DNA of 64,000 bases from Psammoneis japonica. Taxonomy: Eukaryota. The stretch is taken from contig QPGO01000005.1 in the NCBI GenBank assembly GCA_008632985.1, positions 186,001 to 250,000 of the forward strand, given 5' to 3'. The notes beneath the pieces are model-generated. The model saw only the letters and a list, made by a program, of their open reading frames with translations, ran no database searches and had not been told where the DNA came from. Positions 3,130 through 64,000 of this stretch are shown here, one piece after another; the stretch's first letter is position 1; each line of letters opens with the position of its first letter. A program made the translations under genes and the position numbers.

Positions 3130-5905
3130 GTTGTCTGATGGGATGTGAATGAATGAGATCACTGTTGGCCAGTTTTGGATCGTTGATTGCAAGTTGCAGA
3201 AGCAGAAGCTCAGATCCACATCACAGTTGCATGCCAGCATCACTTTGCTTTTGCAGCTGCCACAATGCTGGCAAAGAACCTGTTGAACAAGCACCACAAG
3301 GCCAAAGATGCTGCCGCACATTGGTGCCTGGCTTTTCTCGGCATCATGTGGCGTCAAGTTCTCTTTGGCCCCTGGAGTTTGACCCACTCCTCTGCATCTG
3401 TTGGAGTGTCCTGCAGTGGGGAACATCCGCAATCATGCCTGCCATTGCCACCCCTCCTCCTTCTTTTTTAAGATCGACCTGCAACATGCAGGCTGCAGCT
3501 TTTTGCCCTTGAAGTCTTTTGCAAAAGCATGATCCAGTGGTGGCTGGGGCTGAAAGCCATGCACCACACAATGAACAAGTAACCCATGCAGGCTCAGGGG
3601 TTGTTCAGGCTCAGGTCAACCCATGGGTGGGGTCTCTGTTGCCCTGGTTGGTGCACACCTTGAAGCCAATTTCTCTGAACTTGGGCAGGCAGACAGCAGC
3701 AAGCTGGGAGGGCCTCCACCAGATGCCCATTGAAGTGTGGTGGAGTTTTCCCCTGCTCTGTCTGTGGCTTGGCTGTCTGGTGCACATCTTGATTTTTTCT
3801 CTGCTGTGCAAAAGACATGGTCATTGGCTTTGGAGAAGAGCCAAGGAGTGTGCAGCTGGTTTGCCCATTTTCCTGGAGAGCTCATTGAGCTCGCAATTGA
3901 CTGTTCTGAGCAATGGCCAGGTGGCACACAGTGAGAGCTTTTTGCTGCCACAGTTGCCAGCAAGGACAGGATGGATGACATGATGCTGCTGCTTTGGGCT
4001 GGTCACAATCAGAGCAACATTGTGCTGCACCACCATGCCAACACTCTGGAAGGCTGTGCACTCTTTTGAAGTGGGCAAACAAGGTTAGAAAGAGAGCAAG
4101 GCTCAGCGCAAGGCAGAGAGAGCCAATGGGGTGATGTGGCCCATGTTTCAGTGGCTGGCACCCAGTGCCAACTGGGGGGCCATCAAGAGAAAAAGTTTGG
4201 CCACTGCACCCAATTCCAGCACCAGAGCTCTGCTGCAGGAAGGCTGCTGTCTTGGCAATTCCTTGGTTGACAAACAGCTCAGCCAGGCCCTGGCCATCAA
4301 ACCACCTTGGAGCAAACAAGATTTTCCTGGGAAGGATCTTGGGCATCCCATGGCATGTGTCATGATGTCCATTTTTTGAACAATTTAGATCCATTGGATG
4401 GATGGCAAAATTGAGGTGATGTCCAATCTGCTGGCAGGCAAATCCCTGCAAATGTCAGGGCCTCCTGTCTCTGCTCTGAAGAGGCCCTGACATGTCAGTG
4501 AGAGCCAATGAATCAGGAGCACCAGTGTGCATGACACAGTGCTGTGCTGCACTGGTGTGGTGTGGCAGACATGGTGCTGCACCATGTGCTGGCATTGCTC
4601 AGGTTCACCTCACCCAAAATTCCAAAACAATGGGCGCATCACTGTTCTGCATCTGCCACACAGCTAAATTGCCATTGCAATGCATCAACACATTGCCAGC
4701 AAATCTTTCTAACAAGCATTGTTGAACCAAAAATGCTGCCCAGCTCTTCCCAGTGTGTTGTCAAATTTTCTTTAGCCCCCAGAGTTTGACCTTCTCCTTT
4801 GCATCTGCGGGAGCATGTTGAAGTGTGGAGCACAATCATGCCTGCCATCATTGCCATCCCTTCTTGTAAGATCCACCAGCAAAGCAGATTGCAGCTTCAT
4901 CCTTGGCGCCTTTCAATGGAGCCTTCAATGGTGGCGGCACTCAAAGCCATGTGCAGAACAAATGACCAACTCACAGGACTGAGTGGCTGGCACTCAGGCC
5001 CACCCATGTGCAGTGCTTGTGCCACTCTGCTGGTTTGATGCACCTTTGCACCATTTCTCTGAACTCAGGCAGACAGCCAGACAGACAGCTGTCTAGGAGG
5101 GCCTCTGCCAGATGCCCGCTGAAGTTGTGGAATTGCTTCCTGCTCCATGTGTGGCTCTGCAGCCTGGTGCACATCTCAACCCTTCAACTGCAGCACAGCA
5201 GATGTGATTGCCTTTTTTGGAAAAGAGCCGAGGGGTGTGCATCTGATTTGCCCACTTCCGCAATGCTTGCTGAGCTTGCAGTTGATTGTTCTGACCAGTG
5301 ACCAAGTTGCACATGGTGTTGGCTTCTTGCCACAGCCACCAGCAGGGAAGTTTGGAGTGACATGGTCATTGTGTTGCACCCTGCCAGCATTCTGGAAGAG
5401 CACATTTTCCATTGCCTGGCACAGTGTCTGAATTTCTCAGCACCCTCAACCTCGTTCAACAAACACCATTTTTTCAAAAATGTGCCCCAGTGCACCCCAA
5501 AGTTTTGTGGGTGCTTCCACCAAAAAGGAGTCATCATCTCCAAGGAGTGGAAAAACAAGGTTGGCAGGAGAGCAAAAGTCAGCATCGCAGCAGGAGCGAC
5601 AGAGCTGACAGAGCGACTCAGCTCATCATGTTTCAGCGGTTGGCAACACTGGTTGGTGCAGCCAAGAGAACAAAAGGTGTGGCCACTGTGCCCCCCCAAG
5701 CTCCAGCGCCATCATCCTGTTGTGGAAAACAAGGCTGCTGTCTTGGTGGTTCCTTGCTGGACAAAGAGCTTCAGCTGCTGGGCCCCGACCACCAAACTGC
5801 CGTCAAAAAATCTAAATCCCAGGGCCTGCCTGGCTGCCTGGTCGGTAGAGGGCCTCTTTAGGCCTGCCGCGCCTTGACACGTCAGTGAGAGCCAATGAAT
5901 CATCA
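3130..5905 (+). pseudogene. Two tandem decayed copies (~1.39 kb period) of an unidentified gene; TpA- and CpG-depleted
   Basis: TGACA(T/C)GTCAGTGAGAGCCAATGAATCA at 4488-4515 and 5875-5902. Matching relic peptides in both copies: VKFSLAPGV/VKFSLAPRV, IMPAIA/IMPAII, VIGFGEEPRSVQLVCP/VIAFFGKEPRGVHLICP. In-frame TGA codons probably derive from CGA. Confidence 0.65.
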
Positions 5906-6053
5906 GAGAGGTTCACCTAAACGAACACCACCCGAAATCAGCGCATCATCACTTGTTCTTGTTCTGCATCCAACACGTAATCGATAGCTAAACAACCATC
6001 GCATCACAACGCATCGATATTCCGCGCTTCTAAAGCAGGTTCTGGACTATTAT

Positions 6054-6575
6054 ATGCAACCCCTCCTTTCTCGACAATTGTATCAAAACATGGAACCTGC
6101 AGACTACGAAGAAAAAGATAATGACAACTGTCAGTTTTGTCGCTGGGGAGCGACGCTGTTTGGCAAAAAGAAGCTCGTGTTTGATGGGACAACGATGTTG
6201 CCAGATGATGATTCGTTTGAGGAGGTGTTGAAACCTCATGACTCCTCGTCTAGAAGTACCGACGACGATAGCACCGAGGATGGTATCACCACCTTGTCGG
6301 AAGAGAAGCAAGAAGAGCTCCTGTCGACAGGCAAGAAGCTTGTTGTGGATTGCTGCATCAAGTCGGTTCAAATGGACATTCCGGGCCTGTCGAAAAAGAA
6401 GAGTGTCAAAATGATGCAAAAGTGGCGAGGGAAAATGGATAACGAGTTGGAGGAGACTATTGCTGCTGGTAGTCACGTGGACGAGACTGCGATTCAAGAA
6501 CTGGTGGAAAAACGATTTGAAAAAGTACAGGCTCAGATGCACGCCAAAGGGAGCAAGAAAAGCATGAGGTTATAG
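6054..6575 (+). CDS. Hypothetical acidic/helical protein in an unmutated island
   Basis: Intact 173-aa ORF with normal composition (Tyr, TpA and CpG present); no recognisable domain; start uncertain. Confidence 0.55.
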   Translation: MQPLLSRQLYQNMEPADYEEKDNDNCQFCRWGATLFGKKKLVFDGTTMLPDDDSFEEVLKPHDSSSRSTDDDSTEDGITTLSEEKQEELLSTGKKLVVDCCIKSVQMDIPGLSKKKSVKMMQKWRGKMDNELEETIAAGSHVDETAIQELVEKRFEKVQAQMHAKGSKKSMRL

Positions 6576-6779
6576 AAAAGGAGAGAGTTGGACGTACGAT
6601 GAGTGTCTCTAGAACCTTGGAGGTGTGTTACTGAATGTAACTATATAGATTGCACATAGAGTTATCATGAAATGCTTCGAGGACTCATGCGACACTGACA
6701 CTTAGGGATTACGTTCTCGAGCCAATGAAAGCAAAGTCTCGCGAAGCTGCTCAATAGCAGAACTTTGCGAGTGACGGCA

Positions 6780-9700
6780 ATCACGCACCAGTGGGAGTCA
6801 GGCATGCTGAGGGAATGCCTCGATGATCCTAACGGCGTCCGTCTCAGCTGCTGGCATAGACCTAAGGGGCCCAGTGGCTATTGCCAGAGTCATCTTCCAA
6901 AATCGAGTTTTGGCATCCATGGGCAAGAAGATGGGCACCAAGAGGCCTGGTTGCTGTCTCCTTGTTTGCTGCCATCTTGTTGGTTGCAACTGACCATTTG
7001 GGAGAGCTGCCTCTCACAGAGGTTTCTCGATTTGGGTGCAATCCTTTTTTGTGAGAGAGGTGGCTGTGCCAGTGGGCATTCAATCAATTTCATGATCCCC
7101 AGTCAGTGAAAGCCACACTTCTGTTCCATTGGGGTGACCTGATCTAACTTGATCTATCCATTTGATGACTCTTCAGTCTTCATCACTTCTGCTTGTTGGG
7201 CCTCGAAAATGCCCTCCATGGTGGCAGCCAGTGCTTCTAGCATCCCATGTGTTCATGTGATGCCTCCAATTAATTGACTTCAGCTCTGTCACCCTCATGA
7301 TCTAGAAGGGAAGTGTCAACTGGAGTTTCTTCTGTGGAGCTGCAAAGCCGCAGACCATTGTTCCACTTCAATGAAGCCAAGACAAGCGGCTTTGCTCTGG
7401 TGAGATGAGTTCTCAGTTGGTGGCCCCAATGACACTTTCCAAGCAGTTTGACATTTCTTGAATTCTTGCCAGTGGTGCAGCTTCACAGGTGATGTTGGTG
7501 GTGTTTTCCAGGGTGTGGGAGAGATCTGTGTCATCTGCAAACAGGGTGCAGTGCATGCTTTGAAGTCAGCGCAGCTGCCTTGGTGCTGTGAGCACCTTTT
7601 CTTGTGCAGCGTGTTGACAACTGGGATTTGACCACCAACCAGATGGCGCAGGAGCTGCATCACAACTTTGGAACATTCCTTGCATGAGTGTTTGAGGGTG
7701 CTGCACTGCTTCCATAAATTGCTGCAAACTCAGTGACATGTTCATCTGCTTCTTTTGGCAGAACAGAGCAGCAGGTCCCAATCTGGGTGGGGCTTGTTCA
7801 GCTGCTGAGATGTCTGGGTTGCATCCTGATTCACTGAAAAGGAGCCTCTTTGTGAATGGGACAGCAGCATGGCTGATTTTTGTTCTGGTCTGACCACATC
7901 TTGATTGACCTTCTCCTTTGCATGCTTTCTTCCATGCCCTCCTTGGCCAAAAACACTTGGTGGTGTTTGTGCCATTGGGCCCTGGTCATGCTGCAGCCAT
8001 CCAAAGAGTTGGTCTGAACTTGCCTGTGCACTCTTTTCATTCATTGACGTGTGCATTTTTCTTGGCAACTGTGGCAAATGAGTCTTTCTTCATGTTCTTG
8101 AGAAGCAGTGCCATTGGCATCAACTTGTTTGACATGGTGCACTTTGAATGTGTCTTGCCACAGCTTTGCATCTCATGCTTTTTCAACTTGTGGTGTCTTT
8201 TCATTGCCAGCTTGTGCTGCTCTTCTGTGTCTGATGCAGTCAGAAGGCAAGAGCATTCCATCTCCCTGTGAAAACCTCATTCCAATGCCATGTGTTGTCT
8301 TGAGGCATGCTTGTCAGTGATGGCACAGCTTGGAGATGAGTTGCCTCAGATGAGCTTCTTTCCTGGCCTTGTTGATTTTTGTCAGAGAGCTCAACTTTTC
8401 ACATCCATGTGCACTTTCTGGCACTTCTCCTTTGCTGTCTAACAAATCTGATGGTTGAGCACAAAGATTGTTGCACTCTCAAGCCAGACAGCTCTGAACA
8501 GGAGATCATGTTTCCACACTTCTTTCATGACAAGTTTTGCACATCTTCTCACAAAACACCTTGGGATCTTTTGGCTTTCCTGCCAGCCTGTCTGGTTTCA
8601 CATCTCCACACCAGTTTTGGCAGAGCCCACCCCAGGGCACTCAGTTTGGCAGTGTCTGCTGCCCCATGACAACCTGTGGTCTGAAGTGCAATCAAAATTG
8701 CCAAATCTGGTCATGCCTGCCTCAGAAACTTCCAGCAATGGCAGCAAATTTTGATTGGCTTTTGTCACAAAGAAGATCCAGGTGTGCACACTTTGCTGCA
8801 TTTGCCAAATGCAAGGACAAGTGCCACACTGCAAATGTTGCTCCTCTTGCATTTTTGCCAATGTCTTCTTGCCCTGGAACAATGAGGTGGTCTTTTTTCC
8901 AGCCACTTCTCATTTCTTTCCCCAAGTCTTCTTGCAATGCTTTCCTTTGGGTGTGCACCCCATTGTTCATTGATGACAGACATGTTTCCTGTTGACAGAA
9001 GACTGACCCCGGGCTCACTTGACTGTCTTGCACTGGTCTGTGTGCAATGCAGTGATGATTCTTGTGTGAACAATGCCAGCTTTGCTTTGAATTTTGACCA
9101 CACCCCATCTTCCCAATCTTGTTGGGTCAGGTCCTTTTTCAATCAAATGGCACCTGACCAATTTGAGATTGTGCAACAACATTGCCCATGCTCTTCACTG
9201 ACACTCAGTCTCCACATGGCAATGTGAGTTTGTTGCTGCCACAGAGCTGTTTTCTCAAAGGTTGCAACACCTGCCTTTCCATTGTCTGTGTTTTGGAAGT
9301 CTTGCAAAGCTCAGATTGACTTGGATGACACCCATGATGTCAACATGTGAGTTTCAGTGATCCAGCAACCTACACCCTTGTGTTTGTCCTCTGATGTGAC
9401 TGACACAGGGAGGCCACTGACATGATTTTGGAGGGTGATTTGGTCAGTGTTGCAGCTTTTTTTGTTGTGCAGTGCCCTGCTTGCCACCCTTCTGTGGACT
9501 GAAATGTTTTTCATTTGCGCCCTCCTCTTGTGGCAATCAACAAATCCACCAAGGACTGGGGAGGAGGCTCAGTGGTTGTGACCCAATCCCTTGGCCTGGG
9601 AGTCAGAAAGTTCTCACCTGAAAGAGTGTCCTTGAACATCATGGCTTCAAGCCATGCTTTTGCTGTTCTTCAGTCATTGCCTTGTTGGGAATTGTTGCAA

Positions 9701-12700
9701 CAAAGTCATTGTTTTCTTGCTTGCACTCTCCTGCCTTGAGCAAACAACTTGCAAAATGTTGGCTGTCTGCCCCCCCCCCCCCCCTGGGAGACTTTTCCCA
9801 GGTGGTTGACTCTTGTGCTGAATTTGTGCAGAACTTCCATGGTTTGACAACCTTCCAGCTGTTGTCAGCACTGGCATCATCCTCTTCTTGGATCAGCTCT
9901 GTTGCTTTTCACCATGTCCTTTGCCTCTTTTGTCTTCTTGTCTCCTTTTTGCATGGCGGGCTGTTGTTTTTTCTTTGCTGCAGTGGCTTTGGTGTTGTTT
10001 GCACATGAAAGCTCACAATTGTGCAGATGAAAATCACTGTTTGTGACAGTGCTGACTTTTTTCTGTTTTTTTTTCAACACTTGTCACACATCATCAAGGT
10101 GTGCTCACCAAAGCACTGATGTTCTCGGGCAGCAGCCCCACTTGGGAATCCACAGAGACTTCCAACACTGGTGCATTTGCCCCTGAGCAGGCCAAAATCA
10201 TTTTGCCATCTGAATTTTGGGGCTGAATTTTGGGAAACACTGCTGTGTTGCATTTGACATGTGGGGGGATCTCTTGTTGCACTTGGGCACCAGCATGTCA
10301 CAACAGTTGATGGCTTCATTCTGACACTTTGATCTTGAATCAATTCCAGGCAGTCTGGGGCTCAAAGCCAACAATGGACCCATCTTCCATCCTTTGGCAA
10401 TCTTTCAAGAAATTTGGCCACATTGCACTCCAGATTTTGAAGCTTGTTTTGAATGTGATCACACACCAGACAAAAGTGGGGCGCACCAGCATGTTCCATG
10501 CAAAAATCAATTGTCCAGATGGCATGACAGTGAAAACAGGGCTCCATGGCTCAAATGCTGGTTGACACGGGTGCTCCAATGACAGAGGAACAGCATGATG
10601 GCATTCTGAACCCAACAGACAATGGTCTGCCAGCACAATCTAACATGTGCTGGGACAGCAGTGACAACAAGGTTCAGTCAGAAAGAAAGAGAGCAGAGAG
10701 ACAGATCTGCTCAGCTGTCTGGGTCTGGCCATCATCCACAGATCTGGTGTTCTGACAAAAACAGGGGCAGAAAAAGCCAAAGAAAACCAGTGATGCCACA
10801 GGAGTCAACAGCGGCACCAGAGGACATGTTGCTGAGAGGGGCAGCATGCAGTCCAGGCATGCCAATCACTTGCACCAGCAGGCAAAACTTGGAAAGGAGT
10901 GGCAGAATTGTTTCACCACATGGCTGTGCCAAGCTGTTTTGCATCTTGGCAAAAGGGCTTGTCAAAGACCACACAGCTTGCTGCACCCTTCCTCTCTGCC
11001 AAAGTGAACTCCACCCCCTCTGTTGTGTTGGCCATTGCTGTGAAAAACTCAGCAGATGCCTGGACTCTCTCAAGGGAATGTGAGAGACCCTGTGTTTGTC
11101 CTTGATGAGCCAAGAGCACCACTCTGGGGCTGGTCATGACTCATGAGTCCACAACATGCAAAACTGTGCATTGTTGCCAAGCAGAGGTGTGTTGCCAGCC
11201 ATCATTTGTTTTTGGTGTTGGTTGTCCACACAATTTCCCAGTGCATTGCAGTTCCTGTTGAAGAGGAGTCTTGCTCAAAAATGTCACAACAGGCACAACC
11301 ACTTCCTCTTCGCATGTGGAAAACCTCAATGTCATGCAGAAACATGCACAGCATCATGCAATGGGGTGGCTGGTGCCAGCAACATTTTTGTGGGAAATCA
11401 ATTGAAAAGTGTTGTCTGATCACCACAGGCACCTCTCTTTTTTGCATGGCAAAGAACAGCACCTTTCACCAGAGACAACATTTGGGTTGATCCCCCCTCC
11501 CCCCCTCTTTTTTTGTTGATCAAGTCTGCAAGTGCCAGAGGTCATGAGAGCAACAAACTCCACTCCTGAGTGTGGTCCCTTCCAGCACTCAACAACCCCA
11601 CTTTCATGGGTCTGACCACATGGCAGACAGCAGCAGAGAGGCTCCAATCTTTCACTCTGTTGGGATTGTTGAGCAACTCCATGCCAGCAAGCATCAGTTC
11701 TTCTTGGAAGACAGAATTTGAGTTAAAGATTGCTTCTCCCATCTGCCTGTGTTTCCCTGGGTGAGGTCTGGTGCACACAGAAATCATCTTGCATGCTGTG
11801 CCTCACAGTGCACACACCACCATGGTCTCTCTCACACAGAAGTGTGCACACCAGAGATTCCCTGCCACTGCCACCACCTGAGGGACTGGCTTGGCCACAC
11901 AACCTTGATGCCATCACCATGCCACAATGCAGCTGACAAATGGCCACAAAACCAACCAATGCACAATGAACCCACCCACCTGGTGTGCTGACCATGCATG
12001 GACATGCACGCTCATGCACTGCTGCTGAGACAGCAGCCAAAACCTTGGCAGAACAAATCTGTGGATCCAACTCTCTTCATTTTGTTTCCCAGCCCTGTGC
12101 CACCACAGCTGACCCAATCACTGCCAATCATTTGCTGAGAACAATGAGGAGAACTGGGGAGGCCCAGCCACCTCATCATTGTCAATCATCTGTCCATCCA
12201 CCTTCTCATTCACATGCCAAGAACTCAGCATGACAATGATTGGAAGAAATGGCAGACAATGATGCAACAGTGCTCACATCACCATTCTTTTGAGCAAATC
12301 TGATCAAGTGAGATGCTGCAACAGCACACCTCAATGCTGCTGCTTCAGGATGACCATCATGCTGAATTGGTTCCTTGAGTTCCTGTAGATTGTGCTGCCA
12401 CTGACAGTGCTTTTGTGTGGGTCCACCAGTTGGGTGAACTTGACTGTTGGTGTGAAGAGCAGGACAGTCCATCACACAAGCTGTCACAAGTGATTGTTTT
12501 CCAGAACACACTCCTTTGTCACTCAAGAAGGATTCACTTAAAAGAAGGATTCAAAGACAGCTCAAAGTGGTGGCAACCAAGGCCAATGTCAAGCTGTGAC
12601 AGAGCTGCTTCTGTTGGCTCCACCCATTGGTCCAAATCTGGTGACCAGGGAACAACATGTGAGGTTTTTGACACAGTCTTCAGGCAAGCCATGAGACACA

Positions 12701-15700
12701 AGATGTGTGACAAAGAATGCTGTGACCTGGGCACAGCTTGCCATGCCTGACATGAGCAGCACTGGCATGAGAAGGGATGCGGGGCACTTGGGAGCAACAT
12801 GGCACCTTTTGTGTGGTTGGGTGGGTGTGGCCTTGCATGAGTCAAGCAGAGTGGACAAAAGCCAAACCTGTGGCAAGCAGTGATGGTCTTGCAGCCACCA
12901 TGGGGTTTTCATGAGCACAGCTGCAAGACTGCAAAGCTGAGTTGTTTTGGTGACTTTGCAGTGCAGTGCATTGTCCACACAGCAGCAACCACTTTGACTG
13001 CACCCAGACAGTGCAGAAAGTCCATCACTGCTTCCTGGGGTTGGAGTGGCATCTTGGCTTAGAAGCTGTCCCATTGGAACAACAACACACAACCCAATCC
13101 AATGTCACTGCAAAGATTTTAGAGTTGGTTGTGTCCCAAAATGAATTTTGATGAAGGGATTTGCCAACCATGGGACAAGAATTTAACTTCTTTGGGTCAC
13201 GTGGTCAGGATGACACAACACTTGGCTTCGTTTGTGAAAGGAATGGATGTTTTGGTGACCCAGGTGTCAGAAGTGATTTTCATGACTGTGCTTGATTCGC
13301 CCACCACTGCTGGAACATTTTTGCCCACAATCTGACTGGAACACTGGCACTTTGGCACATTTCCATTTCATTTTTTAAGGACTCACTTCAAATGCATGGA
13401 AAAGACTTCAATCACTTGAAGGCACCATTGAACAAAGACAAGCTGGGGGGCAATGCACCAGACTGCCAGACAGCTGTTGAACACTTCAAAGTGATGCCTT
13501 GCTTTTCCACATTTGAGTTCATGGGGCTGCTTTGCTTGACATGCTGCTGCAACTGAGTGGCCCTTGGTTTCACACGCAAGCCAAAACTTGTTGCAAACAT
13601 GTGCTGGACAATGCAGCAGAGGCAGCGGGCAAGTGTCACAGATTGGACTTTCTCCTTTTTGAGCATGCCAATGGGTGCTTTTCATGTCCAGCAGCATGGA
13701 TGTGGGAAGCAATGGCCAAAGGGGTGCAGTGTGACATTTTCTTTTCTGAATGTTGTTTGATCTGCAATGGCTGAATTCTTGTTTGGCAGGTGTTTCTCTT
13801 GACTCTTGGACATCTCCTTTTTTGGGTTTCATCCCATTTGTAAGCTGCAGATGTCTGAACCACACCTTGGACAACTGAGTCAAACATTGTGCCACAAACA
13901 GCACAACTGTGACTTGCATGGTGCTGTGTTCACCCAAACACGTGAATCAACAATGTTGCGCACTTCTCTCTGAAACTGCTGTTTCAAATTGATGTGTGCA
14001 GCAGCAACATGCATGGTCAACAGCTGTTCATTGAGTGCAGTGCAGACTTGCACAAGCTTCTTCTTTGCATCCTTTTCTGATCTACAACCCAGGCCTGAAA
14101 CTGAAAGTGAGTGGCAGCCCCACCAATGAGATGGCTGGGTGTGGCCCAATGATGATGCCAAGATGACACCGTTTGTGCCACCTGGCAGCAATGCACAAGA
14201 CACACAAAATTTGTCTGTCAAGAAGATGCTGCAGACCTGCTGGTTTAACATCTCATAAATTCAGCAATGCAATGATCAACAGAATGAATGGTCAGCACAG
14301 AGAGGACCTCCTTGGCTGGACCAAGAGTTGCCGTGTGAAAGCAGGAGTGCATGGGTTGAAGGATAGATGACACACAAGATGAGCAAAACAAGGCCAGCCC
14401 AAGGGATCCCTTGCTGTCTGATGGGTTGGGAGACACCATGGAACTGTCAAGACATCTCCAAGGAGATGCCAATGATGATGAAAATTGAAAACCTTCCACT
14501 CCCAATCCTGTCTTTGCAAAGTGAAAGGAAGCCAATTGCTTGACACTGACAATCCCAAGCCTGGCCCCACATCCCAACTGCTTCACCTGGCTGCTGGTGA
14601 GACAACTGTTTTCATTGTGGCAACACCGTGAGTCCACATGCCATCATGCTTGTCACACATGTGCCAGACCATCTCCACGCATTGCTTCAACTGTGCCATG
14701 GGATCCATGGGATTCTTTGTTTGTGCTCCCAGCAATGCCCAAGAATGAAACATGCAACTCAACTCACTCAAGTCTTCACGCATGTCACATCTGTCATTCA
14801 CACCAATGATGATTGCACTGTCTGCATTGTGCAAATCCAAAATGCCCCTCCTTTTCCTTTGGCTCTCTGGCCCCACCTGACGGCAATGTTGGCAACCAAA
14901 ACCCTTCAATCACAAAGCAAGATGAGCAATTGCCCAGATGCTGCATGCACAAATGAGTCCATTGAGGAGAAAGGAACTTTCCAGGAAAACATGGGACAAG
15001 GAAATGAGTTGGAGGAGAAGCAGAAACAGCTGGACCTGGAGCTGGATGGCAGCAGTGCAAATGTCAAAAAAAAAAGGGTTTGGAAGCACAGTGCAAACAC
15101 TGACATTGAAAGAAAGGAACAGGAAACTCTGGAAGTGTCAATTGACAATGTCTGCATCACCTGCCACACAAGTGATCACATTCATTCCAGCCATGTCAAC
15201 CTGCATGCCACATGTGCTGCTTGCTTCACAGGACATCTTGGCATGGAAATGGCACCAGAGACCAGAGGGGGAACATTCAAAGGTGTTTGACAAAACATGA
15301 ACAATGATGTTCCCCCCAGCGGAGCCTTGCTGTGTCTGAAGTTTGTCATTGGAGAATGTTCAATTGCAGCCATGCTGCCAAGTTGCACCATTTTGCCCCA
15401 TGCAGCAAGTGCACTTTCACTGTCATCAACTGAAACACCAGCTGAACTTGCAACAAGAGCTGGGTGATGGATGGGGTCATGGCAAAGATGAGGAGGATGT
15501 CAATGTGCAATGCACTGCTGCCATTGTTGAAGGCATTCAAACTTGCGCCACACACTGGAGCATGATGAGGTGGCAAACTGTCCCTGATGTGGTGCACCTG
15601 GCATCAAGAATGATGCATGTGTGCACATGAAGTGCCGTTTGTGTGCCACCAGTTGGCGCCACTGTTGTGGAAGACATCAGACAAATTGAGGAGGGTGCAA

Positions 15701-17370
15701 CTCCATTTCTCCACTCTTGGAGCAACAACCCAAAACTGGGGAATTTTGGTCTTCAAGGAGATTTGCCAGCTCAGGGTGCCCTTCACAATTTCATTCTCAA
15801 TGAAAAGACAACTTTGTTCAAAATTTTAAAGATTCAAGGACCCCGCATCAGTGGCAAGAAATTGCAGCTGCGCCCATGCCAAAATTCTGACCAATGTTCC
15901 AACCCCTGGACAATGAGCCATGCATGGAAGGAATTGGAAAGCCCCATTTGGCCACCCCCCATCCAGTGAAAAAGACCTGCCATGGGCTCATTGTCCCTGT
16001 CCTGATGCACCAAAAGAGCTGGAAGACCTTGACGCTGCAAACGAGGAAGCAGCTCTGACACCTGTTCCCAAAGCCATTGCACCAGCCACATGGTCTGACA
16101 TCTTTTCTTCTGCAGGAGGCAAACGGTGGCTGTTTCTCACTTTCACACTTCTGACCCCACTTGACACCATCACCTGAACAAGCCATGTGCGCTGGCACAA
16201 AAATCGTGCAGATCTGGGGCTTTTCCAGCTGCTGGCTGGGATGTCTGCATTGCGTCCTGAGTTGCTGAGTGAGAAGGGGCTGCTTTGTGAGTGAGGCAGC
16301 AACATGGCTTGTTCTCTGCACTGGTCAAACCACATCTTGAATGATGGGCTCTTCCTTTGCATGCTTTTCCATGCTTTTGTTGATGAAAACACTCGGTCTG
16401 CAAGTTGGGTTCCTTGCACCACTTTTCATTCATCAAAATGTGCATTTCTCTCAGCAACTTTGACCGACAGATCTCTCTTCATGTTTTTGAGCAAGCAACT
16501 CCATTGGCCTCCACTCATTTGGCACTGCAGGCTTTGAATTTGTCCTGCCACTGCTTTGCATCTTGCCTTTTCAAATCGCAACATCTTTTTGCTGCACCAA
16601 CTTGCAGAGCACTGCTTCTGTGTCAGGTGCAGTTAGAAAGCAAGAGCATTCGCTCTCTCTGTGCTCTCCCTGTGCACCTCATCCCCAATGCTGTGTTGTC
16701 TTGAGGCACGCTTGCCAGCAACGCCAGCACAGCTTGAACATGAGTCACCACAGATGAGCTTCTTTTCTGGCCTTTTTTTTTTCACAGGGCTCTCAATTTC
16801 ATCCACATGCAGTTTCTTTTCTCTTGTGCTGTTTGACAAATCAGATGGTTCAGCACAAAAAGATCTGCACTCTCATGTCTCGCAGCTCTGAGCAGGAGAT
16901 CATGTTTCTGACACAACAACTTTGGGGTCTTCAAGTTTCCTTGCCTCTGGTCTCACATCCACCAGCTTTGGCAGAGCATGTTGCAATGTGAGTTTCAGCA
17001 ACCCAGCAACCTGCGCTTTTGTGTGTTTTGCCAATGCAACAGACACAGGGAGGCTGCCAATGTTTTGTTTTGTGGAAGGTGACTCAGATGACATTGTGGC
17101 TTTTTGTTGTTGCCGTCATTGAGTTGCTTGTTGTCACTCTGTGGACCAACACTTTCTTCACTTGTGTCTTCCTCTTGTGGTCACAATCATTTCCACTGAG
17201 GACTGTGAGTCTCAGTTGCTGCAACCCACTCCCTTGGCCTGGGAGCGGAGCTGGGAAGGTCATCTTCTGAAAGAGTGTCCTCGAACATCTCTTTTGCTGG
17301 GGCTCTGAGCTTGACTTTTCAACACGCACGACACAGCACGGGCTGGAAGTTTTTGCAGCTTGAACAAGTG
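6780..17370. other. ~10.6 kb decayed multi-gene/repeat block, extremely TpA- and CpG-depleted, origin unidentified
   Basis: Only about two dozen TpA seen by eye in >10 kb, with excess TG/CA. Six-frame ORFs are nearly Tyr-free and Cys/His/Gln/Trp-rich. Internal paralogy: ~8030-8620 with ~16420-16980 and ~9340-9640 with ~16985-17290. Confidence 0.8.
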
Positions 17371-17371
17371 G

Positions 17372-18222
17372 CACCGAAAAACTCAAAAACTGACATCATG
17401 ACGGGTGGGGTAAAGTAGATTTTGGCCATTTTATGAAAAAAAATGAAGTAGATTTTTTACTGAAGTCTTCTGGATTTCTACAGGTAAACTTAGTACAGTC
17501 TGCACGTCACCCCCAAAGGTGGAAAAAGCACGAAGAACCTGTTCTGCATAGAGTCTTATTCGCACGATATCGCGCATGACCAACCCAGATTTTCTTGCAG
17601 TGGGAGCTCGTTTTTCTGACTATTAAGTAGTTGTCAGGTAAGTAGAAGTAGATTAAGGATGGATCTACGTGCTGCGGTCTAATTTAAAATAGCTCGTATT
17701 TCCCGCACTTCACTGTGTTATTTTGACCTGCCTCGGAACACCCCCGAACACTTATGCGTTCGTCAAACCCTCATAGGGGCTGTTAGACGGCTATAAGAGC
17801 TGCACATTTAGCGCTTCAAAGGCCACTTATCGACCTATGCCCTGTTGTAAGGTCGAAAAAACCGCTAATTTTCGCTAAAATCGGGCTTCTTATGGGAGAT
17901 TAGCGGTAACTTTCTGGGAAATGCCGATAAGTAGTGGCATTTGACTGGCTATAGACATATCTACAGTCGTTAAGGTAAAAGTCGCGCATGGTCATACCTG
18001 TCTTTTAAGCATTCTAGGGTGTCTGGCGAACGGACAAAGTTCGACCGATCGCTGAAATTTTTTTTGCGAACGCGCGCGCATTTACTACGATGCATCCGGG
18101 TTATTTTTATAAAAATTACGAGCTCCCAAAAAACAGACCGCAGCACGTAGATCCATCCTTAAGTAGATTTCGAGCTATTTAGCAAAAAAACGTCATGATG
18201 TCGGAAGTTGAGTTTTTCGGTG
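17372..18222. repeat. 32-bp imperfect inverted repeat pair enclosing the MITE
   Basis: 17372-17403 CACCGAAAAACTCAAAAACTGACATCATGACG versus the reverse complement of 18191-18222 CACCGAAAAACTCAACTTCCGACATCATGACG (28/32 identical); no flanking TSD found. Confidence 0.8.
17655..18160. mobile_element. 506-bp non-autonomous DNA transposon (MITE), Mutator-like by TSD length
   Basis: Perfect 26-bp TIR AAGGATGGATCTACGTGCTGCGGTCT (17655-17680 / 18135-18160), extended imperfectly by AGCTCGTA. Exact 9-bp TSD AAGTAGATT (17646-17654, 18161-18169). No ORF. Confidence 0.92.
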
Positions 18223-18300
18223 ACTTGGCTTGAAGTAAAAGCTCTTCACGCGGACGGAGTTTGTTGTGAACGAACGAATGTCACGATTTGACGATGGACG

Positions 18301-18887
18301 ATGGGCACCCTTTGCACAAAGCCGGAGCAGCCAGAGGCCCTTCCACCCGTCTCCCCCCCATGGAGTAATGAAAAGTTTCTTCCAGCACAGACTTGGATCA
18401 AAATTGAGGGATTTTGTTTCAAGCTTCCCAGCAATCCATTCCAGAGGCAAAAGGGCGGAACGATTGTCGATCTCACGGCTCGCCAAAACATTTTTTGTAC
18501 CATTAAAGGTGATGCACGAGGGAGCAAATTGCATTTTTTGAATAATGGAAAAGGATTCATAACGGTGGAAAGAGCAATGATGATTACAGTATCTACACAT
18601 ATCAATGCAGCCATGACGGACAAAAGCATGTTCAAGCTCCGACGGGTTTACACGGCATGACACTCTTCCGATTTGGAACCATGGACAAAACAAAAGCAGG
18701 CGTGTATGAATACATCAAGTACCGTGATAATGACAGTGTGTCTATTTGTACAGTAATTTTTAAAACGGTAAGGTTGTCTTTACGGACGACAGTCAAAGGG
18801 TGGTGGCCAAGGCGACGCAAAAGAAATCCAACAATGTGCCAGCCATCTTTCTTCAGACAGCCGAAAACATTGACAAGCTTGCCATGA
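18301..18887 (+). CDS. Hypothetical protein (two abutting ORFs, possibly one frameshifted gene)
   Basis: ORFs 18301..18660 and 18657..18887 with normal composition; no recognised domain. Confidence 0.3.
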
Positions 18888-24508: not shown

Positions 24509-24579
24509 CAGCACCCTGCATCGACGACGAATAGTATGGATACTCGTCATAAGCACTCTCCATCTAGCTACTAGTCTCT

Positions 24580-39065: not shown

Positions 39066-39095
39066 AGCCAGGTTATAAAGCGTAGCGTTTTATAG

Positions 39096-48680: not shown

Positions 48681-48704
48681 AGGATTGGTCCTGTCTCTGG
48701 ATTG

Positions 48705-49200
48705 TAAACTGGGGCCTTTCTCTTGATGAATGGGGTGCTCAGAAGAAACCGCATGTCTCACAATGTGGACTCCTGTTGTCTCCTTTTTACCAAATCAAGG
48801 GAGAGCCACCAGTTTTTGCTCTTCAAGGTGCTGCAGCCATTGCAGGATGGCTCCGCGATGACTTTGCAGGTCGGTGACAGCGCCAAAGACATTGCAGATT
48901 TGGCGCCTTAAGCCGATGACGCTGGAGGGTTGCGGTTTGTCCCTGTCTTTGCCAACTTGCTGGCTCCACAATGGGAGGAGAGTGTGCGTGGAATGATTGT
49001 TGGACACACGGGCATCTCACCAAGGCGAATGTTGCAAGTGCAGCAACAGAGGCGGCAGTGTTTTAGTGTTCCAAGGTGTTTGACGCCATGGCCGCTGACT
49101 CGGGAGCTCCTCTTTCAGAACTTCGTGTAGATGGGGGCATGGCTGCCAAATCTGACTTTGCTGTTCTTGGCCAACATCTTGGGAATTGCATGTCCCTGCC
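48705..49200 (+). pseudogene. glpK: Glycerol kinase (FGGY C-terminal domain) fragment with stops and frameshifts
   Basis: TGAFLLMN, GLLLSPFYQIKGEPPVFALQGAAAIAG-WLRD, GGLRFVPVFANLLAPQWEESVRGMIVG, TKANVASAATEA, DAMAADSGAPLSELRVDGGM, LANILGI, in the canonical GlpK order. Confidence 0.88.
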
Positions 49201-51807
49201 TTGGGAGGACTGCACGTTGGAAAAGTGACCTCCATCGAGGGCAGCGCAAGGAGCAAGAGACCGTGCTCAAGGGATCGTCTGTGGCCTCAAGATTGTCAAT
49301 GAAGAAAAAACCAACATTCAATGTGGTCATCAATTCTGTTCGTCTCACATCCTCTAGTCACCCTGATGCGTGCACATCGACGTGCTCAACAAGGCCAACT
49401 TCGAAGACAAGCTCGAGGATTCTGATTGGAGACTTGTTGTGCTGCTGAAGGAGGCATTCAACATTGTCTGGCCAGGTGATTCTTCACCTCAAAAAAAGGA
49501 CAAAGGGAGCTTGGTGCCATCAGACAAACAAGCTCACTGATCTAGAATGTTTCGTTCATCTCTGGAGAGCAATCTAGCCAGCTGCTTGAGAATTGCCATT
49601 CTTCTGTTGCTCCGCCAGTTTTGGCAGAACACGAACAATCCACAAAAAACACAAGGCAAACAGCGCCGAAACAGTCCAGCACATGCTGAATGTGTCTTGG
49701 AGCATCCCGCAACGAATGCCCCATCGTGGACCCAATCTGAAAAAAGAGAGCGGTGTGGCACAAAAACATAAACGACGGCATCAAAGGATGCAACAACATC
49801 GCAATGAGCACTGCGACCGTCATCGCAGTCTGTTGACTCACGTGCGGAACAACTTGAGCACAAACAGAGATTGCTGTGCTGCACTTTTAGTCTTTCTACA
49901 TCTGTTGTAAAAGTTCAAAGTGTGTTTCAAATGTTTGAAACACGCCAATGTCAAAAGTTGATGGAAATCGGTCGTGCAGGATGACGTTGCCTCAAGAGCA
50001 CCATCAAAAGATGGAGCTCAAGCTTTTGCGCATCTTCAGAGTGAAACATCACCCCAAAAAAATGCAAAAGGGGGGACGTGCTGTGGAGACAACAAGAAAA
50101 CTTGCGAGTCAACCGCATGCTAAATCAACACTCCCTGCGAGTGAAGACTTGCCGCATCATGTCACTGATGCGACGGAACCCCAAACCCCGCGTTCCGTCA
50201 ACGGTGTGATCTGCTTGGCGAGCTTTTGCTGCTTCGCAGACGAACGCTGCTGTCTGTTTCAACAGCCATGACCTGACGGGTCAAGCGAACAGGCAACTTC
50301 CTGCGGTCAAAGACACAGGAGTGACATGGACTCCAGGCCGGAGACACGCGCTCGATTTGCCCCGACCTCCGGACTTCTTAACTGGCGACACCCACGCCGC
50401 CTGGAGACAACACGTCATCAAGCAAATGAGTTGCATAACTGCCAAACAAGAGCAAGCTCTCAATCCAGAGGAAGGGCGAGCCATCCTTGGAGATTGCGGC
50501 ATTCTGGCTTGGCAAACAACAAACACATGGTGCGAGACGACAGCTGTGAGCGAAAACGAGCACGAAAGAACAAAAAGCGTTTTTGAAGAGATTTTGGTTG
50601 TGTCATGACCGTTGCCAAATTTCTCAATCACTGTCACTTTTGTGTATCCTCGCAGAATTGTCCCGTGGTTTCGTGTGTAGAACAGAGTTTAGATGGAACT
50701 TGTGCTTTCAAAATCAGTGCAGCACCAATTCCCACGCACCCTTCACGGCAGATGGAGAGTGCGTGATCCAAACGCTAAAAACTAAAAACTGCCACCGCCA
50801 ACATTGTGAAACAGGATGTTCAGGATGTGTGGATGACGCAACCTGCACATGGCACAATCAAAGTCGCTTGGAGCAATGATCAAGAGAAAAATGCAAAGTG
50901 CAGCCAATGTGAGGCAAGGCGAGCCTGCAAGTCCGTCAGGCTGCGCGAGTCGTCAAACATTCCAATTCCATTGCGGTTCGCCCGTACAAGAGCCTTTCTT
51001 CCTCTCTGTCACCGATTCGGATGCCCAAAGGCAACCAAGATTTCCGCATGTCTGATGGAAGCCCCTCAAACACACTCCGTGTGGGATTGTTGCTCCCCAG
51101 TTCAACGTCTCCCATGTACAGCAGATGATGTCACAGCACCCAAACGTATCATGACATGCTCATTGCGTACCCGGGGGTTTATTCGTGACACCGTGACACG
51201 AAACCGCAGGGTGCTTCTAGTGTCTTTAAAGGCCTGTGGCACGTGGATCCTTTGCGAGTGAACAGGAACTATGGCGCGTGCATTGTCGCCACGCTATTTG
51301 ACTTTGAGGAAGTTCGAGAAAAATCGACGTGACCCGCATCTTGAATCTGTCCCAGAGCATTTTCATTGAAGCTGCAGAGTCAGTCGTCGGCCGCAAGCAC
51401 GAGAGCTGGTTTGGAGGGAAGCGTTTCGCATCTCGGCTTCAACCAAGTGTTACAAAGCCAGCTTTGGCACACGTTGTGCGGAATAGCTGCCGCGAGGCAG
51501 GAATGCAGCGGAAGTTACGTTTTCCTTAGGAATGTTGTGACCTTCATCACTGTAAGGTTTCATGCTGATACTTTCGGGATCGGATCTTGTTTACAGATGA
51601 CACGTTCTGCATAGCGACGAAAGTGTAGCCGCCTTCACTGGTTCACGTTCAACACGGAAAAGAATGCGTCGAGAATCAAGCTCTGCAGTCCCTAGCTCAG
51701 TGTTTTTACTTAGCAATAAGGGGAGCCACGAGTTGCTCGAATGATGTACAGTCGCTCGCTTTGTTATAAAGGAGTGTTACAAAGAAACTCTATACAGTAG
51801 AGCTTTT

Positions 51808-60924: not shown

Positions 60925-60975
60925 ACTATGATGATTTAGACTTTTTTTCTAATTGATTCTCATTCATAACCTATC

Positions 60976-62255: not shown

Positions 62256-62419
62256 GACTGCTGATTCTGATGTTGAGTCTTGCGCAATGCAGTTGTTCTA
62301 TTGCATCGTTTGACACAGGTAAGATTTCTTTGTCGTTGCCGTTTGCCGTTCCATCCTCGCTGCTCGCTGCGCTCTGGAATCTCCTCTTGTCAGCTTGTCA
62401 GTGTACCGTATCGTCATTG

Positions 62420-64000
62420 TCTGCTCAAACAAGCCATGGCGGGACAAGAAATCATCATGAGACATGAACGCGGGGTCCACAGAACTCGAAAGAGGTGCTG
62501 CAGGGCTGATCAGTCCACAGCAATGCTGCCATGACTGTTTGATCCTTCTTTGAAAAAAAAAAAGCTCACCTTGCTGCACCCCCACTTCTGAGGTGCAGCA
62601 TGATGGGGCACACGAGCACTCGTCGTCCAAGAAGCAGGGGTCATTGTGGCAACAAGACAAGCTGCAGTCACAGTGGTGGCTTGTTGGTGGTTCCAAAGGT
62701 GCTGCCCAAACTTTGCAAACTGATGCACCTTCTTTTTGCAGTGTTTTTCTGTGCTGCAAAAAAAGGATGTGTTGGTGCCCCCCCCCCCGCCAGCAGCACG
62801 GAGCCACAAGCGCTGAAACTTGCCCAGCTGCCCTCAACTGTGGCAAAAGCTGCAAAAAATTCTTGAGAAGAAAAAGTCAATGAGTTTCATTGACAAGAGA
62901 GCTTCAAGAGTCAGTCAGAGGATGCAGATGACTGAGTTCCCAGTTTTGTGCAACAGCGCATCAGAGCGCGCACATTGCAGTGATCGACCCCTCCCTTCTC
63001 ACAGTGATTTTCACTCCTTTTGCAGGTAAATTTTTTGTGGTTTCAAACCTTGTTAGTTGTGCAGCTGGCAACAATCATTTGACTGTGAAAGGTGATTGTT
63101 TTTGCTGTGAAGTCCTCTTCTTAACTGCAAGAAATCAACATCATCAACTTGTTTGGCAGCCTCCCCCTTTTCCCATCAGCATGCGTGCACTCCATTGCTG
63201 CAGAAGCTGATGATCAACATCATTTGTTTTGTTGTGCTACATTTTGATTTTCATGTTCAATGTGATTTGTGCAATGAATTTGTGCCGCCTTTCTCAATCA
63301 ACAATGAACTGTTGCTTTTGCTGCTTCACATGGACTGCCAAGAATGAACACCAAGTTGACATGCCATGGTGTCTGCCACATTTCATTTTCAACTGGCTCA
63401 TGCTGGAGTTGCTGTTTGGTCATCTTTGTCATTGGCTTTTTCACTCTCTTTGTCTTCCTCCTCATCTTTTCTGTTGCCAGGTGTTTCTGTTTTGTCTTCG
63501 TCCTCCTCGTCGTTGCCAGAAAGCTCTGTCGTTGCTGGTGTTCTCGTCTCCACCTCCGCTGGTTTTTTGTTGGTTCTGCCCTTTTTCCTTTGCCTTTGCT
63601 CTCCCTTTTCTTTCCATTGGTGCACCATGTGTTGAGCTGCACACCTGGCTCACTTGCCCTGTCTTCCTTTGCTGCACCCCCCCAAGCAGGGCTTTGAGCT
63701 GCTCAATTCCTTCATCCTTTCAAGAGTCGCGCTGCCGTGTCTCGGGTCTGCACACTTGGGCACCAGTTTTGTTTCCTTCTCCTCCTCTTCACTCCCTTTC
63801 TCCTTTCCTTTCTGCATGGCCTTGTGCTCCCAAACCTTCCAGCAGCTTTCCAACATCAACAGCACCAGTGCCTTGTTGCTTGCCACAGCTGGCTCTGCAG
63901 CCTTGGTGCTGCCGGACTGACTTCACCATCCTTCTCCACATCGCAGTGCTCTTGATGCATGTTGGAATGTTGTCATGGAGCCACAGCTGTGTGTGCCTCT
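62420..64000. other. Start of another TpA-depleted decayed repeat domain (runs off the window)
   Basis: After ~62412 only a handful of TpA occur in 1.6 kb; CpG is reduced; ORFs are Tyr-free. Confidence 0.75.

Follow-up and report, generated by a model that had tools for sequence, protein, structure and literature searches.

Five blocks of the Psammoneis japonica DNA analysed here, a stretch of 64,000 nucleotides to which we refer as the window, hold almost no TpA and an excess of TpG and CpA. The window is diatom DNA, the best named matches of a housekeeping gene being to pennate diatoms. We consider it probable, at roughly 0.8, that a TpA-specific mutator converting A:T into G:C pairs has hit transposon-derived blocks already integrated in the chromosome, and that this process is of the same kind as the de novo TpA to TpG/CpA hypermutation that strikes integrated viral DNA in the alga Bigelowiella natans, described in the preprint by Mettrop et al. 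(2026 bioRxiv 10.64898/2026.01.13.699255). The direction of the change, its TpA context, its action in place, its strand symmetry, its extended context and its confinement to the blocks can be read from the sequences; the chemistry and the targeting, discussed below, are proposed with less confidence.

The blocks resulted from a two-state segmentation on TA density (Table 1) and add up to 23.4 kb, or 36% of the window; they fall near the five sharply bounded domains, poor in TpA and rich in TG/CA, that a preliminary description of this DNA had delimited. Their observed/expected (o/e) TA ratio is 0.03–0.13, versus 0.44–0.63 in the five inter-block stretches, where CG o/e amounts to 0.87–1.03, and the TG and CA ratios are 1.3–1.9 in the blocks versus 1.05–1.33 outside (TG/CA of 1.77/1.83 in block 1, 1.83/1.87 in block 2 and 1.54/1.42 in block 4). 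The depletion goes beyond base composition: when each block was shuffled 200 times at constant mononucleotide content, the TA counts always stayed far above the observed ones. The block edges are sharp to tens of bases and the adjoining genes have normal TA, in agreement with the view that neighbouring genes are spared. The scarcity of tyrosine and of TAA/TAG stops, to which the same description had drawn attention, is present as well, but is a trivial consequence of the absence of TA.

Table 1. TA-depleted blocks of the window, with TA counts observed and in 200 mononucleotide shuffles per block.
Block	Position	Strand	TA count	Shuffled mean TA	Shuffled minimum TA	TA o/e	CG o/e
1	about 3012–5812 (start also set at 3131)		9	155	131	0.06	0.20
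2	6880 to about 17375–17410		23 in 10.5 kb	701	647	0.03	0.10
3	31550–36255	-	17	200	164	0.08	0.80
4	47358–51116		31	234	203	0.13	0.73
5	62410–64000, continues past window end		4	100	83	0.04	0.31

The alteration is narrow. The o/e ratios of AA, AT, GA and CT are the same in the blocks as in the background, and that of TA goes down from 0.58 to 0.04–0.13. The share of pyrimidine-purine steps among all dinucleotides is 0.238–0.240 in blocks 1, 2 and 4, with a background of 0.234, and within these steps the loss of TA and CG is balanced by the gain of CA and TG: in block 2, TA+CG goes from 0.095 to 0.008 and CA+TG from 0.140 to 0.230, and in block 4 a TA loss of 0.032 plus a CG loss of 0.009 comes close to the CA+TG gain of 0.045. 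Error-prone repair of the Pol eta type, which had been suggested for its WA motif and would turn A into G at AA as well as at TA, is rejected, AA being undepleted (1.16–1.31 in blocks versus 1.17 in the background).

A separate observation, missed in the preliminary description, is that CpG is nearly gone as well from blocks 1, 2 and 5. As blocks 3 and 4 are TpA-depleted yet retain most of their CpG, TpA loss and CpG loss are separable processes. Since CpG has also been lost in the former three blocks, ordinary 5mC decay makes up about half of the CA/TG excess there; deamination of 5mC at CpG in methylated transposons accounts for their CpG o/e of 0.10–0.31 and, unlike the process described here, is unable to remove TpA. 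Blocks 1, 2 and 5 would then be older ones, in which methylated-CpG deamination would also have stripped CpG and, along with the mutator, turned both self-complementary pyrimidine-purine steps into CA/TG.

Only block 3 has recognisable content. It is a minus-strand retroelement copy whose ORF2 contains an RVT_1 reverse transcriptase (35016 down to 31612), aligns to residues 92–1243 of an intact 1264-aa relative (L012 ORF2) and keeps a single frame from 34795 to 31850 with one internal stop. Block 1 consists of two tandem copies of a unit of ~1.39 kb (about 3130–4515 and 4516–5902, direct repeats spaced 1384–1491 bp), for which a Pfam search gave no credible match. Block 2 is a 10.5-kb element with LTR-like direct repeats at 7788–9640 and 16215–17289 (paired repeats lying about 8390 and 7645 bp apart), without a Pfam match or a homologue for the ORFs tried, its coding content being beyond recognition. 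Block 4 gave no credible Pfam match, and a 262-aa open frame of block 5 gave one marginal match (E 1.7e-4) among 1.84 billion representatives. The term transposon-derived thus refers to the retroelement in block 3 and, for blocks 1 and 2, to their repeat structure; its use for blocks 4 and 5 is an assumption; of the contents previously listed, the transposon stands, and duplicated genes or gene fragments were not confirmed.

The internal duplications evidence that the change took place within the chromosome. The tandem copies of block 1, with 69.6% identity over 1045 aligned bases, present 38 aligned doublets of CA versus TG, against 0–10 for each of the seven other double-transition pairs, and the LTR-like repeats of block 2 present 14, against 0–2 for other double transitions. 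In blocks 1, 2 and 5 such doublets are compatible with either a TA or a CG ancestor. The duplicated copies have resolved the same sites independently, after the duplication. Both strands are affected alike, as the dispersion of TG:CA over 500-bp bins (0.66–1.85, versus 1.60–2.45 in the background) reveals no added heterogeneity. A hint of recent, post-insertion activity may come from the differences between a public sequencing run (X1) and the window: among the 29 listed inside blocks, which belong to a biased sample of 40 listed out of 482 differences, 20 sit at TA- or CG-derived steps, including 4 CA/TG doublets and 4 of the 9 TAs remaining in block 1.

The direction of the change is seen in the block 3 retroelement. 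At 12 columns in which five TA-normal homologues conserve tyrosine, it has Tyr in 2, Cys in 5, His in 2 and other residues in 3, and tyrosine amounts to 0.7% of its residues versus 2.9–3.6% in the homologues. Ten of the 89 replacements at conserved columns correspond to a single TA to TG/CA step, compared with 3, 1 and 2 for the same transitions after A, C and G. About 87% of the TAs of this element are gone, yet it retains ~80% of its CpGs and a reading frame that only one stop interrupts; the TpA mutator would be fast relative to other decay. Among related loci, 78 of 80 have a whole-locus TA o/e of 0.41–0.88, and two unrelated metagenome contigs, L015 and L028, bear the same depletion mark. 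In L015, bases 1–3467 have TA o/e of 0.06 and CG o/e of 1.01 and are followed by a normal flank, and the 706-aa RT frame is devoid of tyrosine, having kept none of the 12 conserved Tyr columns (5 are Cys, and 6 of the 12 Cys or His); L028 has TA o/e of 0.21. When the window and L015 are pooled, Tyr to Cys replacements number 10 and Tyr to His 3. The replacement pattern, the balance between TA+CG loss and CA+TG gain and the involvement of both strands support a mutational change in place, from A:T to G:C at TpA, as the preliminary description had proposed.

The same description regarded the process as repeat-directed, which is unsupported because a high-copy element adjoining block 2 keeps normal TA. 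This element of ~0.85 kb (17376–18222) has terminal inverted repeats and normal TA and CG (TA o/e 1.05 at 17501–18000), and its word depth, 1868 and 1319 in two bins versus about 55–70 elsewhere, corresponds to about 25–30 times single-copy. The depleted blocks are themselves at single-copy word depth, tandem repeats within genes at 20.6–22.1 kb hold TA o/e of 0.63–0.81, and the main hypermutated region of B. natans is also single-copy (10.64898/2026.01.13.699255). Targeting by repeat homology, in which duplicated stretches above a length/identity threshold are mutated as in fungal RIP, could nevertheless draw on the internal duplications of blocks 1 and 2 and on diverged paralogues, which must exist somewhere for the first 20 kb, given that 362 of the 663 X1 contigs placed there match at <95% identity; we regard it as unlikely, though first among the alternatives. 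Fungal RIP as such is rejected. It shares with the present process rapid, near-saturating transitions of mobile DNA in place, a dinucleotide context and aberrant blocks with sharp borders, but it changes C to T at CpA, creates TpA, lowers GC and requires duplicated DNA, whereas here TpA is destroyed, CpA and TpG are created and enriched, and the high-copy element is untouched while single-copy blocks are hit. For the mutator that we favour, targeting would rather proceed through silent chromatin or small RNAs.

The TAs that survive within the blocks (n=84) comprise 47 YTAR, 33 mixed and 4 RTAY contexts, versus 312, 859 and 453 among background TAs (n=1624; chi-square 70, p 6e-16). A comparable distribution is found in L015 (8/2/0) and L028 (7/4/0), versus 99/388/255 in TA-normal relatives, and the gain of TG is greater where the next base is a pyrimidine; the surplus of Cys over His among the pooled Tyr replacements agrees with this. 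With genes and distant relatives standing in for the true ancestors, and the relative-based gain by context being too noisy, the predominance of YTAR among survivors points to a mutator that would prefer T-A-Y, which reads R-T-A on the complementary strand, and would leave most Y-T-A-R sites alone. This fits the TA/TAC-type preference of TadA-like enzymes that had been put forward previously. By analogy, the tRNA adenosine deaminases TadA/ADAT2 target an anticodon-loop A preceded by U33, hence one in a U-A context, and bacterial TadA reads U-A-C, which resembles the preference proposed here. As to the chemistry, a deaminase, TadA/ADAT2-like or of another type, may convert adenine to inosine directly in the DNA, a step that, taken alone, we hold as tentative and somewhat below even odds; amphioxus BjADAT2 has been reported as DNA-editing (as cited in 10.64898/2026.01.13.699255).

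The same sites could also be altered through thymine, if a TET/JBP-type enzyme modified T at TpA in silenced DNA into 5-hydroxymethyluracil (5hmU) or a base-J-like product that mispairs with G, resulting in T>C. At the self-complementary TpA, T>C and A>G are indistinguishable by sequence, the R-T-A preference mirrors T-A-Y, and the 5hmU of dinoflagellates favours TpA and TpC. However, 5hmU pairs well with A, and therefore near-complete conversion would take very many generations; moreover, the sole experimental precedent, itself without direct proof in the sections available, favours adenine deamination (10.64898/2026.01.13.699255). We consider this route improbable, and place it second, after repeat homology.

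Editing prior to integration, with retroelement RNA or cDNA being hyper-edited (ADAR-like A-to-I on dsRNA, or cDNA deamination) and then inserted, would suit block 3, a retroelement with which the mutated zone coincides, and ADAR prefers to edit an A preceded by U (10.64898/2026.01.13.699255). Yet the tandem copies and LTR-like repeats show independent resolution of TA/CG after duplication, AA is not depleted, and Cys and His both replace sense-strand Tyr, which together with the strand symmetry indicates that both strands were hit, while RNA or cDNA editing is one-stranded. The differences between X1 and the window at these sites would also suggest post-insertion change, and the B. natans mutations arise in integrated DNA (10.64898/2026.01.13.699255), so that such editing is very unlikely; its ADAR-type version fixed by retrotransposition is rejected on the independent resolution and on the involvement of both strands. 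ADAR hyper-editing of double-stranded RNA and APOBEC3 editing of retroviral cDNA are mutational defences that use deaminases against viral or mobile nucleic acids, as the present process may be, but their substrate is RNA or a single cDNA strand prior to insertion, and not both strands of chromosomal DNA after duplication, and APOBEC alters C rather than A.

A modified base at TpA miscalled as TG/CA, the true DNA still being TA, might be entertained given that the public runs derive from one sample of one study, may be the window's own source and have no recorded library type. The X1 contigs (0.6–1.3 kb, word depth about 45–56) carry the same TA-free sequence, each site being consistently TG or CA, and exclude an assembly or polishing artefact, though not every platform artefact. 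The presence of the mark in L015 and L028, the coherence of the Tyr to Cys/His pattern and of the single-frame ORF, and the fact that the B. natans changes were called from Illumina reads in separate lines (10.64898/2026.01.13.699255) render miscalling highly improbable, even next to editing before integration. Least credible of all is foreign DNA without any mutator, its source avoiding TA and CG by selection as might a virus that evades RNA sensors or nucleases (viruses are known to avoid UpA and CpG), in view of the TA-normal relatives of block 3 (78 of 80 loci), the replacement of conserved tyrosines, the CA-versus-TG doublets between paralogous copies and an o/e of 0.03, far under the 0.41–0.88 of the relatives.

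According to the mutator reading, the five bounded, transposon-derived blocks would have been targeted once already chromosomal, and A:T would have become G:C at TpA, giving TpG or CpA according to the strand on which the adenine was struck; the process would run near saturation and alike on both strands, and at the block edges would come to a halt over tens of bases. In B. natans, mutation-accumulation lines acquired 231 mutations across two regions of integrated viral DNA, and 230 of these were A>G or T>C changes, every one at TpA, with a rate some 1000-fold that of the background; low-TpA coding sequences show enrichment for reverse transcriptase and DDE transposase domains (10.64898/2026.01.13.699255). 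As far as the available sections of that preprint go, the two systems share the restriction to A:T>G:C at TpA, with TpG and CpA arising on the two strands, the sharp contrast of the mutated DNA with the rest of the genome (in B. natans, confined to foreign or mobile DNA) and the long-term loss of TpA with gain of CpA and TpG. On the same basis they differ in the evidence, which is experimental and de novo in B. natans and a sequence signature in the window; in the depth of the depletion, with o/e of 0.03–0.13 over 36% of the window versus a Rho of 0.45 in the B. natans NCLDV region; in the additional loss of CpG from three of the five blocks; and in the extended T-A-Y preference, of which those sections report none. 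The process had been presented as undescribed, and this holds for diatoms, for which our literature searches found no report of TpA hypermutation, but not in general, as the preprint shows the same hypermutation. B. natans is a chlorarachniophyte (Rhizaria), and the blocks described here lie in a diatom (Stramenopila): the phenomenon is real, its kind is already known from B. natans, and a diatom host is newly added to it.

In sliding 500-bp windows, the observed/expected ratio (o/e) of TpA, which is mostly 0.4–0.8 along the window, drops to 0–0.17 in certain domains, within which the o/e of TG and CA rises to 1.5–2.3. A two-state segmentation on TA density delimited five such blocks, with borders resolved to tens of bases and a total of 23,388 bases (36% of the window), near the positions given in the preliminary description; the depletion claimed there was confirmed, as the observed TA counts lie far below every minimum obtained in 200 shuffles for each block.

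TpA-depleted blocks and other features of the window, with dinucleotide o/e, observed TA counts and TA counts in shuffled sequences
Feature	Coordinates	TA o/e	CG o/e	TA count	Mean TA, shuffles	Lowest TA, shuffles
Block 1	3012–5812	0.06	0.20	9	155	131
Block 2	6880–17410	0.03	0.10	23	701	647
Block 3	31550–36255	0.08	0.80	17	200	164
Block 4	47358–51116	0.13	0.73	31	234	203
Block 5	62410–64000	0.04	0.31	4	100	83
Background, five stretches		0.44–0.63	0.87–1.03
LTR-like direct repeats of block 2	7788–9640; 16215–17289
MITE-like element, ~0.85 kb	17376–18222	near 1	normal
Tandem repeat in apparent gene, 368-bp unit x4.1	20591–22098	normal
Tandem repeats in apparent gene, 96-bp/380-bp units	45024–46319	0.27–0.37	normal
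Beta-ketoacyl synthase gene	28710–29837

CpG loss, of which the preliminary description made no mention, accompanies TpA loss in three of the five blocks (1, 2 and 5). Taken together, the pyrimidine-purine steps CA, TG, TA and CG account for 0.240, 0.238 and 0.238 of the dinucleotides of blocks 1, 2 and 4, against 0.234 in the background, and the gain in CA and TG equals the loss in TA and CG: in block 2, TA+CG amounts to 0.008 versus 0.095 in the background, and CA+TG to 0.230 versus 0.140. The remaining dinucleotides stay close to background. GC-biased gene conversion was considered and rejected, as it is not specific to TpA and the GC content is 0.48–0.52 in blocks 1, 2, 4 and 5 versus 0.47–0.49 outside. 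On the left of block 1 adjoins a CpG-dense, TA-free stretch of 120 bp (3012–3130), which sits between the final TA of the background (3011) and the end of CpG (~3183).

The content of the blocks is identifiable in block 3, a minus-strand retroelement with a reverse transcriptase (RVT_1), which aligns to residues 92–1243 of the intact 1264-aa ORF2 of a relative, metagenome locus L012. Between 34795 and 31850 block 3 retains one reading frame, interrupted by one internal stop, and 4 of its 980 codons were counted as Tyr on the translation. This stop (33506–33508, minus strand) falls where homologues have Arg (PWFLTRF vs PWFLK*), and CGA>TGA through CpG decay would fit it. L012 is an apparently intact copy, with the 1264-aa ORF (RT) and a 1172-aa frame open at the 5' end of the locus; throughout the family (window 31550–36255 and its 29 closest loci, L001–L029) the sense strand is extremely C-rich and G-poor (GC skew −0.24 to −0.59) and the proteins are rich in Pro, Ser, Thr, His, Gln and Leu. 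A Pfam search of 120 open frames of at least 80 aa from blocks 1, 2, 4 and 5 returned chance-level matches and no credible one; the duplicated genes or gene fragments earlier assigned to such blocks were not confirmed; in homologue searches no homologue was found for a 229-aa frame of block 2, and an exhaustive search with a 262-aa frame of block 5 gave one marginal match (E 1.7e-4). The best matches of the beta-ketoacyl synthase gene, at 63–69% identity, include Seminavis, Nitzschia, Cylindrotheca, a Bacillariaceae MAG and Ditylum, which places the window in a diatom, probably pennate, without a close relative in the protein collection.

We have surveyed 80 loci from metagenomes that code for relatives of the reverse transcriptase in block 3 and observed the same mark in two of them, in both cases with CpG intact. 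In the first, L015, bases 1–3467 have a TA o/e of 0.06 and a CG o/e of 1.01, with a TA-normal flank from base 3468, and the locus has an open frame of 706 codons without any Tyr; the second, L028, has a TA o/e of 0.21, and in the other 78 the whole-locus value is 0.41–0.88. These two loci are independent support for the mark being genuine. Contigs of 0.6–1.3 kb (word depth ~45–56) from a public sequencing run, X1, also span the TA-free blocks, at a depth similar to that of the flanking genes, which excludes an assembly or polishing artefact, although this support is not fully independent, since the sample may be the window's own source and its library type is unrecorded.

The place of the change is shown by duplicated copies. 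Block 1 is a ~1.39-kb unit duplicated in tandem, and its copies (69.6% identity in a 1045-base alignment; 225 transitions, 93 transversions) evidence 38 aligned doublets with CA in one copy and TG in the other, against 0–10 for each of the seven other double-transition pairs; between the block 2 repeats the figures are 14 and 0–2. Such doublets are explained by one ancestral TA (or CG) resolving independently in each copy and, as the copies neighbour each other in the chromosome, the change took place there, after duplication. The 38 discordant sites imply that the ancestor had ~76 TA+CG sites (7.3% of the 1045 bases); this is near the 9.5% of the background, which suggests that most of the conversion is later than the block 1 duplication.

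Since block 3 retains CpG, it isolates the TpA process, and its effect on Tyr codons was analyzed at 12 Tyr columns conserved across five TA-normal homologues (a version with six homologues was also made). At these columns block 3 has Tyr 2, Cys 5, His 2, Leu 1, Arg 1 and Phe 1, and L015 has Tyr 0, Cys 5, Thr 3, His 1, Ser 1, Phe 1 and Leu 1; overall, Tyr makes up 0.7% of residues in the window and 0.0% in L015 versus 2.9–3.6% in homologues. Of 89 replacements at conserved columns of block 3, ten correspond to a single TA>TG/CA step, with the same transitions following A, C and G accounting for 3, 1 and 2, and CpG decay fitting 4. In one homologous protein, P0127, several positions that are Tyr in the other relatives are occupied by Cys or His, and its source may be a copy in another genome that has undergone partial hypermutation.

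In respect to the strands, block 3 has a G skew of +0.5, and one-stranded editing was considered as its origin; this was rejected, since the negative skew throughout L001–L029 makes it a family trait. Within the blocks TG and CA show equal enrichment, and no strand-coordinated TG-versus-CA patches above background are found in 500-bp bins (dispersion 0.66–1.85 vs 1.60–2.45). Both strands are affected alike.

The TAs that survive are biased in their context: the 84 in the blocks comprise 47 YTAR, 33 mixed and 4 RTAY, compared with 312, 859 and 453 among the 1624 of the background (chi-square 70, p 6e-16). The same classes count 8/2/0 in L015 (n=10) and 7/4/0 in L028 (n=11) versus 99/388/255 in TA-normal relatives (n=742). 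In addition, the gain in TG is greater before a pyrimidine, both in blocks 1, 2 and 5 taken together (12.6 and 14.4 vs 8.4 and 8.5 per 1000 tetranucleotides) and in block 4 (6.8 and 8.4 vs 2.6 and 4.5), and Tyr codons (T-A-Y), pooled from the window and L015, have become Cys 10 times versus His 3 times. With stand-ins for the ancestors, these replicated results point to the adenine in T-A-Y as the preferred target, Y-T-A-R being largely spared; the gain by context in block 3 and L015 versus 18 relatives is too noisy to read at ~40% identity.

Concerning tempo, block 3 has kept TA at ~13% and CpG at ~80% of the family norm, with an almost intact frame, from which we infer that TpA loss outpaces CpG decay several-fold and indel decay by a wide margin. 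Among the 40 listed of 482 differences between the window and run X1, 29 lie in blocks: six are TA versus TG/CA, eight form four CA/TG doublets, six are CG versus TG/CA and nine are other; at four of the nine TAs remaining in block 1, run X1 reads TG or CA. This partial sample suggests that the mutator has been active since the two lineages split.

Taken together, these results argue, with a probability of about 0.8 and from one window, for a domain-restricted mutator that would convert TpA to TpG/CpA in place and on both strands of mobile DNA that is silenced; in the older blocks, CpG decay would be superimposed. The mutational process proposed in the preliminary description is thus upheld by the CA/TG doublets, the Tyr replacements and the balance of TA+CG against CA+TG, which is not the case for its being repeat-directed. 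The MITE-like element that adjoins block 2, with terminal and subterminal inverted repeats, reaches word depths of 1868 and 1319 in run X1 versus ~55–70 elsewhere, i.e. ~25–30 times single-copy, with many contig variants joining across it. As this element and the tandem repeats of 368 bp inside genes keep normal TA, targeting is not simply through repetition, and it is unlikely that repeat homology triggers the mutator. The rather low TA of the other genic repeats probably results from coding constraint. A second run from the same sample, X2, covers within bases 1–20000 only the gene-like parts 1–2700, 6023–6568 (depth ~118) and 18.3–20 kb, and one piece inside block 2 (~13.4–13.8 kb), at whose loose ends TA and CG are present. 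This coverage may mean that X2 derives from transcripts, or that the block 2 piece has a paralogue with normal TA. A third run, X3, yielded no matching contig, and no RNA run is listed among those containing the stretch.

The likeliest chemistry would be deamination of adenine to inosine at TpA, which we put forward tentatively, at somewhat less than even odds. A U-A sequence context is typical of TadA/ADAT enzymes, a suggestive agreement by analogy. Modification of thymine to a base mispairing with G would give the same sequence outcome as a change of the adenine, and is judged improbable. Repair by Pol eta, also advanced at the outset, acts on WA motifs and was ruled out, as AA is unaffected (o/e 1.16–1.31 in blocks vs 1.17). 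Editing of RNA or cDNA before integration is contradicted by both the CA/TG doublets and the strand symmetry, and is very unlikely. A base-calling artefact is scarcely credible, and selection for TA avoidance even less so, each being contradicted by several lines of evidence.

The proposed mutator is not undescribed, as had been supposed, since a 2026 preprint already reports TpA-directed hypermutation in the chlorarachniophyte Bigelowiella natans, so far the single source for such hypermutation of foreign DNA. In its mutation-accumulation lines, an integrated giant-virus region and a virophage region together received 231 of the 302 nuclear point mutations; A>G or T>C changes, confined to TpA, account for 230 of these 231 and arose ~1000 times faster than background, in some lines only; the study also describes 324 low-TpA coding sequences enriched for reverse transcriptase and DDE domains, as well as 124 low-TpA/high-CpA+TpG clusters, and its authors propose an ADAT2-like candidate deaminase (bioRxiv 10.64898/2026.01.13.699255). 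The text of this preprint makes no mention of diatoms (bioRxiv 10.64898/2026.01.13.699255), and a full-text literature search found no report of TpA hypermutation in them. In comparison with B. natans, which belongs to another supergroup, the depletion in the diatom is far more extreme and comes with an inferred motif. What is new is that a diatom, together with two environmental contigs from the block 3 retroelement family, carries the saturated signature, which indicates that the process is not peculiar to one alga and may be widespread in the marine protists that dominate primary production.

In practice, a TpA o/e below ~0.15 with a matching CA/TG gain and YTAR survivors provides a survey marker for genomes, any candidate enzyme must reproduce the preference for T-A-Y and the sparing of Y-T-A-R, and annotators should regard "ORFs" of such blocks that lack Tyr and have few stops as artefacts. 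The process outpaces both CpG decay and frameshift decay, and a natural enzyme editing chromosomal adenine would be of interest for the base-editing field. It is conceivable, if still rather less than an even bet, that a defence by a DNA adenine deaminase, guided by chromatin or RNA, is active in diatoms, where it would rapidly turn T-A-Y into T-G-Y in transposons that have just been silenced, and that chlorarachniophytes share the same system; it would be RIP-like, yet of opposite chemistry to fungal RIP. If true, this could supply a natural editor of adenine in double-stranded DNA whose motif is defined, and would represent an ancient and widespread eukaryotic genome-editing immunity, at least SAR-wide, which also shapes the composition of diatom genomes.
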